Assembly: GCA_963665595.2 (NCBI GenBank)
Contig: CAXXJK010000009.1
Coordinates: 164,289-228,288, forward strand
Direction: 5' to 3'
Source: Coriobacteriales bacterium
Lineage (GTDB): Bacteria; Actinomycetota; Coriobacteriia; Coriobacteriales; CADBOM01
DNA length: 64,000 bases
Shown one piece after another: positions 28,456 to 30,194 of the stretch. The notes under the pieces are model-generated. The model saw only the letters and a list, made by a program, of their open reading frames with translations. It was not told where the DNA came from and ran no database searches. The position numbers and the translations under genes are program-made. The stretch's first letter is position 1. Every line of letters starts with the position of its first letter.

Positions 28456-28782
28456 ATGGAGAACTATGCGGCATACGCGCAAGTGTTTAAAGCGCTGAGT
28501 GACCCCAAAAGGGCAATGATTGTGGATATGCTTTCTTGTGGGGAACTTTGTGCCTGTATGATTTTAGAAAACTTTCAAATGTCTCAATCCACTCTATCTC
28601 ACCACATGAAGCTCCTATGCGAATGTGAAATTGTTGAGGGCAGAGAACAAGGTAAGTGGACGTACTATTCACTGAATGAGGAAACAGTCTACAAAATAAA
28701 GAACTATTTTGATGCTATTACATCCGATAAGAAGGGTCGCGTCTGTAAGGAAAGCGCAGACTGCCGTAGAGGATGTGATTAA
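28456..28782 (+). CDS. ArsR/SmtB-family metalloregulator
   Basis: Metal-site-like ELCACMI, HTH STLSHHMKLL, and extra C-terminal cysteines CKESADCRRGC. Confidence 0.85.
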   Translation: MENYAAYAQVFKALSDPKRAMIVDMLSCGELCACMILENFQMSQSTLSHHMKLLCECEIVEGREQGKWTYYSLNEETVYKIKNYFDAITSDKKGRVCKESADCRRGCD

Positions 28783-29887
28783 AACGGCTCAGAAAAACGT
28801 AACTGAACAAACTTGCTGCTATTCGACCAACTGCAACTGCGAAGATATGCAGCTTATAACACCTTATGAAGAAAAGGATACCTGGGTAACAGGCGAAATC
28901 AGCACATCCAAAGGAATTGTTCCTGTTATAGCAACGAAGACGCGTTTTGCTGACACGCTTGGGGCATGGAAAGTGCGGTGGGGTATAGGGAGGATGGATT
29001 ACAAGATTAATCCTGGCCTCTACGCGGTTGGCAAACCTGATGACGCGTCGCCTGTACTCGTCAGCGCAAGTTACAAATTAACGTTTGATGCCTTGAGGAA
29101 AGAACTTGCGGGTCTCGATTGCTGGCTACTGATTCTAGATACAAAAGGCGTCAACGTATGGTGCGCTGCTGGAAAAGGCACATTCGGGACCGAGGAGCTC
29201 ATAAACCGCATTTCTCAAACGGGATTGTCTGAAATCGTATCGAGCCGAATGCTTATATTACCTCAGCTAGGTGCCGTTGGCGTGGCCGCCCATGAAGTTA
29301 CCCGACGGACTGGGTTTGCTGTGATCTATGGTCCAATCAGGGCAAAAGATATAAGGGAATATATCGATTCCGGCTATAAAGCCACAAAGGAAATGCGTGC
29401 CGTGACATTTACGGCATGGGACAGGCTAGCGCTTACGCCCTTGCAATTGGTTCAGGCGGCTAAACCGCTACTAATGGTGCTGGGCGTGCTATTTCTTATT
29501 AATCTGTGTGCGGCAAGACCTTTCGGGTTGCATGACTTCATCATCGGAGCGGGCGCCGTTATTGTGGGAGCCGTTATAACACCACTTTTGCTTCCTTTTG
29601 TACCGGGCAGAGCTTTTGTATGGAAAGGCTGGCTGTTGGGGTTACTATGGACGGCCATATGTGTGTGGCTAAGCGGTTGGTTTGCCGTTAACTACCTGCT
29701 CCTCGGTATAGGTTATCTGCTGGTAATGCCGTCGATCTCGGCGTTTATTGCTATGAATTTCACAGGTTCATCTACCTACACATCATTTTCGGGAGTCACA
29801 AAGGAAATGAGGCGCTCGCTACCACTTATCATTTTTTCTTCTGTCATAGGCATTGTGCTGGTGCTTATAAAAAGCTTTATAGGCTGA
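28709..29887 (+). CDS. hgcA: Mercury-methylation corrinoid protein HgcA
   Basis: Cap-helix motif NVWCAAGK at nt 29153-29176 within LILDTKGVNVWCAAGKGTFGTEEL. Upstream lies RWGIGRMDYKINPGLYAVG...SPVLVSASYKLTFDAL. The C-terminus has about five TM helices. The start is uncertain: ATG 28709 overlaps arsR, and GTG 28775 and ATG 28847 are alternatives. Confidence 0.92.
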   Translation: MMLLHPIRRVASVRKAQTAVEDVIKTAQKNVTEQTCCYSTNCNCEDMQLITPYEEKDTWVTGEISTSKGIVPVIATKTRFADTLGAWKVRWGIGRMDYKINPGLYAVGKPDDASPVLVSASYKLTFDALRKELAGLDCWLLILDTKGVNVWCAAGKGTFGTEELINRISQTGLSEIVSSRMLILPQLGAVGVAAHEVTRRTGFAVIYGPIRAKDIREYIDSGYKATKEMRAVTFTAWDRLALTPLQLVQAAKPLLMVLGVLFLINLCAARPFGLHDFIIGAGAVIVGAVITPLLLPFVPGRAFVWKGWLLGLLWTAICVWLSGWFAVNYLLLGIGYLLVMPSISAFIAMNFTGSSTYTSFSGVTKEMRRSLPLIIFSSVIGIVLVLIKSFIG

Positions 29888-29900
29888 TAGGGAAGACATC

Positions 29901-30194
29901 ATGAAACAAAAATATCTGAAAAATGTAGTCACGCTTAATCTGGCGACAGAGCAATGCATCGGCTGCGGCAGATGTGCCGAGGTTTGCCCTCATGATGTGT
30001 TCGTTGTTGTCGACATGAAAGTGCGCATACAAGACAAGGACAGTTGCATGGAATGCGGTGCTTGCGAAATGAATTGCCCGGTAGATGCCATTTCAGTCGA
30101 TGCAAATGTTGGATGCGCTGCGGCCATCATCCAGGGATGGTTTACCGGAAAGGAACCAAGTTGCGATTGTTCGGGCGGCGAAAGTTGTTGCTAG
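29901..30194 (+). CDS. hgcB: HgcB, 2x[4Fe-4S] ferredoxin partner of HgcA
   Basis: CIGCGRCAEVCP and CMECGACEMNCP motifs, an extra internal Cys, and a C-terminal ...CDCSGGESCC. Lies 13 nt after hgcA. Confidence 0.9.
   Translation: MKQKYLKNVVTLNLATEQCIGCGRCAEVCPHDVFVVVDMKVRIQDKDSCMECGACEMNCPVDAISVDANVGCAAAIIQGWFTGKEPSCDCSGGESCC

Follow-up and report, generated by a model that had tools for sequence, protein, structure and literature searches.

A probable Clostridia-type arsR-hgcA-hgcB cassette in the chromosome of a deep-branching Coriobacteriia lineage

Within contig CAXXJK010000009.1 we analysed a stretch of 64,000 nucleotides (the window, numbered from its first letter) that carries the genes arsR, hgcA and hgcB. 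We hold it probable, at roughly 85%, that these form a genuine, intact hgcAB pair with its own ArsR-type repressor, packed into a single 1.8-kb operon module (28382-30195) that is part of the chromosome of a low-G+C, deep-branching member of the Coriobacteriia, and that this module was horizontally acquired from, or is shared with, the Bacillota (Clostridia). To our knowledge, hgcAB is the sole genetic marker of microbial methylmercury production, and its patchy distribution limits the prediction of where this neurotoxin is made. An earlier note, made from the letters alone, had recognized the gene identities, the operon layout and the Coriobacteriia host, all of which stand; it had overlooked the Clostridia type of the genes and their horizontal acquisition. 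The features of the locus are as follows.

28382-28455, + strand: conserved promoter/operator, aligning with the regions upstream of arsR in eight cassettes of other genomes
28456-28782, + strand: arsR, 108-aa ArsR/SmtB metalloregulator (HTH_5, NF033788)
28775-29887, + strand: hgcA, 370-aa corrinoid protein with a GTG start (NF040863)
29153-29176, + strand: cap-helix motif NVWCAAGK, HgcA residues 127-134, the Cys being C130
29901-30194, + strand: hgcB, 97-aa 2x[4Fe-4S] ferredoxin (NF040864)

Family calls were made with NCBI equivalog hidden Markov models and their curated cut-offs, and with Pfam. HgcA matched the model HgcA_corrinoid (NF040863) over its full length (model 1-325/325) with 471.8 bits (cut-off 275, E=1.1e-141), whereas it scored under the cut-offs of the fused HgcAB-like paralog model (202.1 bits, cut-off 285) and of PRK04165, the model for the gamma subunit in CFeSP, the corrinoid iron-sulfur protein (72.3 bits, cut-off 306). 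The hallmarks of HgcA given in the sections of Cooper et al. (PMC7305189) drawn on here are a strictly conserved Cys in the cap helix (Cys93 in Pseudodesulfovibrio mercurii ND132) and an essential five-helix membrane domain. The motif NVWCAAGK is found exactly where the earlier note had read it, and its C130 is invariant in 84/84 aligned HgcA homologs; it is the equivalent of ND132 Cys93, the proposed axial cobalt ligand. An AlphaFold2 model of HgcA, built on a 30-sequence alignment, had a mean predicted local distance difference test score (pLDDT) of 60.7 and a poor corrinoid domain, and only the helix count of its membrane domain was used. The predicted helices span residues 221-245, 252-275, 281-299, 305-332 and 339-369, with a pLDDT of 65-90 over most of the block 221-369, and Kyte-Doolittle hydrophobic segments at residues 223-370 agree with these five helices. 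The suggestion that about five transmembrane helices follow the cap helix was thus borne out.

That the protein is a non-methylating paralogue and not HgcA, either a fused HgcAB-like protein or the large subunit of CFeSP (AcsC/CdhE), is scarcely credible, and the sequence comparisons effectively refute it. In its favor, Pfam reports only the shared corrinoid domain (PF03599, CdhD; 51.7 bits, residues 99-216), and the PDB sequence matches, among which there is no solved HgcA structure, are all CFeSP gamma subunits, aligned to HgcA residues ~76-198 with E=1.9e-9. Besides the scores above, the separate hgcA and hgcB genes, the cap-helix Cys that CFeSP lacks and the five-helix membrane domain all speak for HgcA. 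The protein lacks CFeSP's N-terminal [4Fe-4S]/TIM-barrel part, and only the last ~120 CFeSP residues align with it (chain 318-440 of 445).

HgcB scored 128.3 bits against NF040864 (cut-off 99, 7.1e-38), so that both proteins lie above their equivalog cut-offs. In the same sections of PMC7305189 the hallmarks of HgcB are two CxxCxxCxxxCP motifs, a Cys73 that follows the second of them by ~12 residues, and a Cys pair at the C-terminus (Cys94/95 in ND132). The ferredoxin of the window has both motifs (C19/22/25/29-P30 and C49/52/55/59-P60), which 80-81 of 81 homologs share, and its other cysteines are C72, C88/C90 and the terminal C96-C97. C72 lies 13 residues past C59, is conserved in 79/79 homologs and is by its position the predicted counterpart of ND132 Cys73. 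The terminal pair is kept almost throughout (C96 in 76/79 and C97 in 78/80 homologs), as are all 13 cysteines (76-81 of 81). The 97-aa ferredoxin with two cluster motifs and a terminal Cys pair that the earlier note had described is therefore what the gene encodes, and neither the cap-helix Cys nor the terminal pair, whose misalignment that note had named as the finding to fear, is out of register with its homologs. Every residue that those sections call essential for HgcA or HgcB is present in the locus.

The three open reading frames lie at the positions first proposed for them, and one start codon needed revision. The hgcA frame had been given as 392 aa; such a frame exists (28709-29887), as the maximal one from a TTG, and the protein is likely the 370-aa product of GTG 28775. 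We prefer this start because three observations agree on it: it is the start in the public gene call (P0001, 370 aa), the arsR/hgcA junction agrees at 18/18 nt with that of the relative L087, whose HgcA starts with MIKTA, and the resulting N-terminus MIKTAQ resembles those of P0004 (MIKTAK) and P0006 (MIKMN). ATG 28850 was also considered as the start and ruled out, since the clade conserves a Cys-rich tail (C14, C15, C20, C22) that lies upstream of it. This tail, TCCYSTNCNC, lies within HgcA residues 1-25 (28775-28850) and precedes the corrinoid domain. N-terminal tails containing CC are a conserved feature of the Clostridia-type clade (P0002, P0003, P0020), where some are duplicated, and the tail is absent from the list of HgcA features in the sections of PMC7305189 used here. 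It may be a metal hand-off site.

With the GTG start, the arsR stop and the hgcA start overlap by 8 nt (GTGATTAA), in line with the overlap that had been suspected, and translational coupling of the two genes is therefore possible. The hgcB start follows the hgcA stop after 13 nt (29887 to 29901) and is preceded by its own ribosome-binding site. Among 83 related loci, hgcB follows hgcA in 80 and arsR precedes hgcA in 48. The geometry of L087 is the same as that of the window (108-aa arsR, 8-nt overlap, 13-nt gap, 97-aa hgcB), and L081 and L090 have near-identical layouts.

The regulator encoded by arsR matched PF01022 (HTH_5) with 47.3 bits and NF033788 with 94 bits (cut-off 55). As had been noticed from the letters, it carries ELCAC, with C32 and C34, and a C-terminal tail rich in Cys; both Cys of the motif are kept in 49/49 cassette-linked ArsR proteins. 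Control of hgcAB by ArsR has been shown experimentally in ND132, and several phyla are documented to have ArsR upstream of hgcAB, although the hgcAB-linked ArsR proteins outside the Desulfovibrionaceae are not all close homologues (bioRxiv 10.1101/2022.10.17.512643). The ~75 nt 5' of arsR are conserved as well. An alignment of nine cassettes reads CATATTGACA, a spacer with TTCGATTTGA, TATAAT, TCATATCGAAnnnTTTnGATTTGAGG and ATG, and the window has TTGACA (28386-28391), a 23-nt spacer containing TTCGATTTGG, TATACT and then TCATATCGATGTTCTTTGATTTGAGG, which includes the Shine-Dalgarno sequence of arsR. Five to six extra bases in the spacer (GGCAAATGTGGG) create the palindrome ATTTGGCAAAT (promoter 28386-28420). 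A scan for the sigma-70 consensus did not report the cassette promoter, because of the 23-nt spacer.

The host was placed by two proteins encoded on opposite sides of the cassette, LeuS (43180-45744) and Mfd (7488-10943). Among the top 120 LeuS matches listed, those with a name all belong to Eggerthellaceae or to its genera Rubneribacter, Raoultibacter and Ellagibacter and are 67-70% identical; metagenomic proteins without a name reach 75-77%, and a further match, P0132, belongs to a cluster with a member labelled Actinomycetota bacterium. The named Mfd matches are all Coriobacteriia at 50-57% (Atopobiaceae, Raoultibacter, Anaerosomatales, Coriobacteriales, 'Coriobacteriia bacterium'). In an Mfd distance tree, the window forms a long deep branch outside the clade that includes the Anaerosomatales (= OPB41) sequence and outside the Atopobiaceae and Raoultibacter groups. 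On this phylogenetic evidence the class Coriobacteriia is secure, and we place the host, a member of a poorly sampled lineage, at that level. The Coriobacteriia-type actinobacterium that the earlier note had recognized is thus supported by both flanks. Matches of 100% to the LeuS, Mfd and HgcA of the window are each recorded on a 415,445-bp contig. The G+C content is 46% overall and 42-50% throughout, low for an actinobacterium, and the remaining genes are those of an ordinary chromosome (bacA, mazG, polyprenyl synthase, cell-wall hydrolases, guaB, leuS, LCP transferase, indolepyruvate oxidoreductase). The contigs of the nearest LeuS relatives, L084 and L085, share the downstream synteny, and the cassette site is outside their span. 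On the minus strand at 55830-60753 there is an energy-converting [NiFe]-hydrogenase/Mrp-antiporter-like membrane complex (Complex1_49kDa/NiFeSe large subunit, NuoL/MrpA-like subunit), which is consistent with a strictly anaerobic host.

The cassette itself points to the Clostridia. The closest HgcA proteins are 70-78% identical to that of the window, and all named ones are from Clostridia except one from an Atribacteraceae: Clostridiaceae, Feifaniaceae, Syntrophomonadaceae, Christensenellaceae, Acetivibrionales, Oscillospiraceae, Defluviitalea raffinosedens, Syntrophobotulus and Ruminiclostridium hungatei. In the GTDB species genomes, 533 stretches encode HgcA relatives, and no Actinomycetota are among the best 80 (53-75% identity), which were the ones assessed. 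A neighbour-joining tree of HgcA, a distance tree without bootstrap, nests the window in the Clostridia clade as sister to the Bacillota metagenome-assembled genome (MAG) OH_HFB_433 and a Logan contig. HgcB is 71-75% identical to Clostridia HgcB, and ArsR is 65-70% identical to the ArsR of Clostridia cassettes over its full length, including the Cys-rich tail.

A blastn comparison with the L087 cassette found homology over 28382-30195 (72.6% over 1822 nt), and the sequence directly beyond these positions is unrelated. As the homology spans exactly the -35 box to the hgcB stop, the transferable unit would be the promoter/operator together with the three genes. The neighbours of the cassette differ from genome to genome, with Kdp and a P-type ATPase in L081, phosphate transport in L083 and LysR/ChrB/MFS in L087. 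The third-codon-position G+C content (GC3) of hgcAB is 0.48-0.50, compared with 0.40-0.54 for host genes, and neither G+C nor GC3 is anomalous. Composition is uninformative on transfer because the likely donors are similar in G+C to the host, the cassette-bearing contigs L081, L083, L087 and L090 having 40-47%. The ~73% DNA identity to the nearest known cassette and the host-like GC3 indicate an old transfer or an unsampled donor.

No HgcA match was found in the plasmids of PLSDB or the viral contigs of IMG/VR, which agrees with McDaniel et al. 2020 (PMC7438021), who found no hgcA on viral contigs or near insertion sequences or transposases. Against that finding, one JGI metagenome contig stands out: at L090 630-8118, arsR-hgcA-hgcB has as its neighbours a UPF0236 transposase, AbiH and the reverse transcriptase of a group II intron. 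Another observation concerns termite-gut MAGs (L007, L009, L012, L016-L024, L032, L034, L038, L042, L058-L065 and others), whose HgcA is 58-67% identical to that of the window. Their labels (Treponema, Synergistaceae, Desulfovibrio, Dehalococcoidia, Betaproteobacteria, Methanomassiliicoccaceae, Clostridia) are intermingled in the HgcA tree, which suggests extensive exchange within this habitat, or binning errors.

Directly downstream of the cassette lies a tRNA-Ala integration site with an integrative element, and upstream of it a methyl-transfer cluster.

16111-24194: methyl-transfer cluster genes, namely DUF2284, AcsV/RACE-like reductive activase, B12-binding protein, MTHFR-like protein, methyl-tetrahydrofolate:corrinoid methyltransferase and two URO-D-family methyltransferases
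30231-30332, no strand assigned: left attachment (att) repeat, the duplicated 45-nt tRNA-Ala 3' end plus 57 nt of downstream flank, starting 36 nt past the hgcB stop
30333-39999, no strand assigned: body of the integrative element (~9.8 kb), outside the hgc cassette, with a tyrosine integrase
40000-40101, no strand assigned: right att repeat, a 102-nt direct repeat 98% identical to 30231-30332
40057-40132, - strand: tRNA-Ala(GGC), the intact integration target (ARAGORN; Rfam 66.5 bits)

The element has its tyrosine integrase gene (38647-39960) beside the tRNA. Also present are genes for a DEDDh exonuclease (33219-34460; PADLOC DEDDh 135 bits) and for one HIRAN and one PASTA protein, and a gene of low GC content (37644-38561, 37% GC). 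Compared with a phage collection, the 9.8-kb element gave no match. Before its integration, the hgcB stop would have been about 93 nt from the 3' end of the tRNA-Ala. A third att copy, which would put hgcAB within a tRNA-Ala island, was looked for and not found; the two that exist bound the 9.8-kb element, and the cassette is therefore beside a mobile element and not demonstrably inside one. On the minus strand at 35447-36419, a DnaB-like helicase is split into two overlapping frames of 157 and 175 aa, which correspond to the N- and C-terminal halves of DnaB_C. A frameshift has probably made a pseudogene of it, and decay of the element is thereby suggested. The element also holds a ~155-nt repeat (30731-30886 and 32829-32984, 84-92% identity, 2098 nt apart), of which each copy is non-coding and ~230 nt upstream of a + strand gene (31112, 33219). 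This may be a duplicated regulatory region.

The methyl-transfer cluster, 4 kb upstream of the cassette, is corrinoid-dependent and O-demethylase-like. Because none of the four other cassette contigs has such a cluster among its listed genes in the stretch examined (L081, L083, L087, L090), its proximity is probably coincidental. Its gene content does indicate that the host uses cobamides and methyl-tetrahydrofolate, and both are plausibly available in the cell. Between this cluster and the cassette are a 300-aa protein and a 757-aa fusion protein. The latter (25965-28238), whose gene immediately precedes the cassette, combines a zinc-ribbon-like N-terminus with sigma-70 regions 2 and 4 and a membrane segment, and its C-terminal domain is RHS-repeat-like; a scan of JGI metagenomes with it returned one match, 27% identical.

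Several points weigh against an acquired and working module. Composition gives no independent support for transfer, and the OPB41 actinobacterial HgcA proteins were left out of the unbootstrapped HgcA tree. The spacer between the -35 and -10 boxes is 23 nt in the window and 17-18 nt in all eight compared relatives, a length that could weaken sigma-70-type expression. Finally, arsenic-linked and halomethane-dehalogenation roles have been proposed for HgcAB in the literature. One alternative is that the contig is an assembly chimera joining Clostridia DNA to an actinobacterial contig, the cassette being foreign to the Coriobacteriia chromosome. The best matches of the cassette are indeed all Bacillota while the flanks are Coriobacteriia, and the source is evidently a metagenome or draft assembly. 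A chimera would, however, need two precise mis-joins just 1.8 kb apart between Coriobacteriia-type genes on both sides, and the HgcA, LeuS and Mfd of the window are all tied to the 415,445-bp contig. Neither GC nor GC3 breaks at the junctions, the att repeat that belongs to the host tRNA-Ala starts 36 nt past hgcB, and in each of the other genomes examined the cassette has other chromosomal surroundings. We regard a chimera as very unlikely. A different alternative is that of a silent or decaying relic of an old transfer, unexpressed in its Coriobacteriia host. The insertion of 5-6 nt that makes the promoter spacer non-canonical relative to the eight relatives fits this, as do the Shine-Dalgarno-like AGAGGA that ends 1 nt before the GTG start and the ~73% nucleotide identity to the nearest known cassette, hence the old transfer. 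A relic would nonetheless hardly have kept three intact frames, the 13 HgcB cysteines, the cap-helix motif and C32/C34 of ArsR. The amino-acid identity (65-78%) is about equal to the DNA identity despite the long divergence, as purifying selection predicts, and GC3 is equilibrated with the host with no disruption. Moreover, the -10 element is the main determinant of actinobacterial promoters. A relic thus appears improbable.

The remaining alternative concerns function and accepts a true hgcAB orthologue. Its role in the host might be other than mercury methylation, namely arsenic or metalloid handling or corrinoid-dependent halomethane dehalogenation, with methylmercury as a side product at most. 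An As(III)-type ELCxC site is found in 49/49 cassette-linked ArsR proteins, the hgcAB regulator of ND132 responds to arsenic and S-adenosylhomocysteine, and hgcAB mutants are more As(V)-sensitive. Moreover, CCl4 dechlorination by heterologous HgcAB has been described (2026 preprint), and Podar et al. (PMC4646819) called the native function of HgcAB unknown. There is, on the other side, no arsB, acr3, arsC or arsM beside the cassette in the window, and such a role would be compatible with the capacity to methylate, as every hgcAB+ organism tested in the cited papers methylates mercury. We consider this alternative less likely than not.

If the cassette functions as a methylation system, as its likeness to studied systems suggests, the pathway would run as follows. 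ArsR would bind the conserved dyad-like boxes that overlap the promoter and repress its own operon until a thiophilic metal(loid) occupies C32/C34 or, as in ND132, S-adenosylhomocysteine releases it. HgcA would bind a cobamide 'Cys-on' via C130, and the two [4Fe-4S] clusters of HgcB would reduce the HgcA-bound cobamide to Co(I). The Co(I) would then be methylated, presumably from methyl-tetrahydrofolate, and the methyl group would be passed to Hg(II), delivered by the C-terminal Cys pair and C72 of HgcB, to yield methylmercury. These steps follow the sections of PMC7305189 drawn on here and the work on ND132; the locus itself provides the gene content, the diagnostic residues, the gene spacing and the conserved regulatory DNA.

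A more far-reaching proposal treats the 1.8-kb promoter-arsR-hgcA-hgcB unit as a transferable module, complete in itself and carrying its own regulation, that moved from Clostridia to a Coriobacteriia lineage of animal guts, a relative of the Eggerthellaceae, and inserted at a tRNA-Ala integration hotspot. If this were true, methylmercury could be made inside the host by a bacterium related to common vertebrate gut commensals, the view of vertebrate gut bacteria as lacking hgcAB would be contradicted, and there would be a first concrete clue to the vehicle of hgcAB transfer. We find the proposal unlikely. The hints of a gut or oral association are limited to a choloylglycine hydrolase gene and to the Eggerthellaceae as nearest named kin, and the association is speculation. 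The MAGs with the nearest HgcA proteins bear labels that name no habitat, and literature searches for accessions of the nearest relatives gave none either. The gene (15095-16081; CBAH 165.9 bits) belongs to the choloylglycine (bile-salt) hydrolase family, which also includes penicillin V acylases, and is a possible hint of an animal-gut lifestyle. According to Podar et al. (PMC4646819), hgcAB is effectively absent from ~1500 human and mammalian microbiomes and is present in invertebrate guts. Our literature search found no paper linking hgcA with Eggerthellaceae. If the organism is host-associated, the locus would bear on in-host methylation.

The wider interest of the locus is that it is a Clostridia-type cassette in a deep low-G+C Coriobacteriia lineage that the Mfd distance tree places outside the clade with the OPB41 sequence. 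The exact shared unit of promoter, arsR, hgcA and hgcB can aid the design of primers and HMMs and thinking on how these genes spread. For environmental hgcA taxonomy, it means that a 'Firmicutes-type' read may stem from an actinobacterium.

Among known systems, the large subunit of CFeSP (AcsC/CdhE; PDB 2H9A, 4C1N, 4DJD) has a corrinoid-binding domain homologous to HgcA ~76-198. HgcA differs from it in lacking the N-terminal [4Fe-4S] and TIM-barrel domains and in having a cap helix with Cys and a C-terminal five-helix membrane domain; its partner is a ferredoxin, whereas that of the CFeSP subunit is AcsD. The nearest regulatory parallel is ArsR2-hgcAB of ND132 (Gionfriddo et al., bioRxiv 10.1101/2022.10.17.512643), and P. 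hydrargyri BerOc1 likewise has an ArsR/SmtB gene directly upstream on the same strand, a likeness by gene arrangement. Same-strand adjacency as in ND132 is consistent with co-transcription and auto-repression. In ND132 there is an intervening gene number (DND132_1054 vs 1056), whereas arsR overlaps hgcA in the window, and ArsR2 reportedly has an atypical metal site, whereas the ArsR of the window has the classical ELCxC pair and a Cys-rich tail.

McDaniel et al. 2020 (PMC7438021) reported 17 hgcA+ Actinobacteria, comprising nine Coriobacteriia MAGs, all of the order OPB41, together with Thermoleophilia and UBA1414, and described repeated horizontal transfer. These Coriobacteriia share with our host the class, the presence of hgcAB and evidence of horizontal acquisition. 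The novelty that the earlier note attached to hgcAB in this class was accordingly overstated: nine such genomes had been reported in 2020, and ArsR-hgcAB regulation had been shown in ND132. In all, hgcA+ Coriobacteriia (OPB41), ArsR-hgcAB linkage and inter-phylum transfer were already published by 2020-2022. Our host differs from OPB41 in lying outside the clade of the Anaerosomatales sequence in the Mfd tree and in having Eggerthellaceae as its nearest named LeuS kin. Actinobacterial HgcAB are said to cluster with the Deltaproteobacteria type (PMC7438021), whereas those of the window are of the Clostridia type, a contrast drawn with the statement in that paper. The locus is a sound, intact member of this known system in a new host lineage, and two modest additions are made here: a definition of the shared module at the nucleotide level and its position beside a tRNA integration site.

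The closest counterparts are the hgcAB of Clostridia, such as Bacillota bacterium OH_HFB_433 (GCA_023408315.1), Defluviitalea raffinosedens, Syntrophobotulus glycolicus and Ruminiclostridium hungatei, whose HgcA is 70-78% and HgcB 71-75% identical to those of the window. S. glycolicus, with a HgcA 74% identical, is listed simply as hgcAB+ in PMC5038027. OH_HFB_433 and the other loci compared share with the window the arsR-hgcA-hgcB order, the overlapping arsR/hgcA junction, the Cys-rich N-terminal tail of HgcA and the promoter/operator. The cassette of the window is set apart from them by its Coriobacteriia host, its unrelated flanks, a spacer 5-6 nt longer and the adjoining tRNA-Ala integration site.

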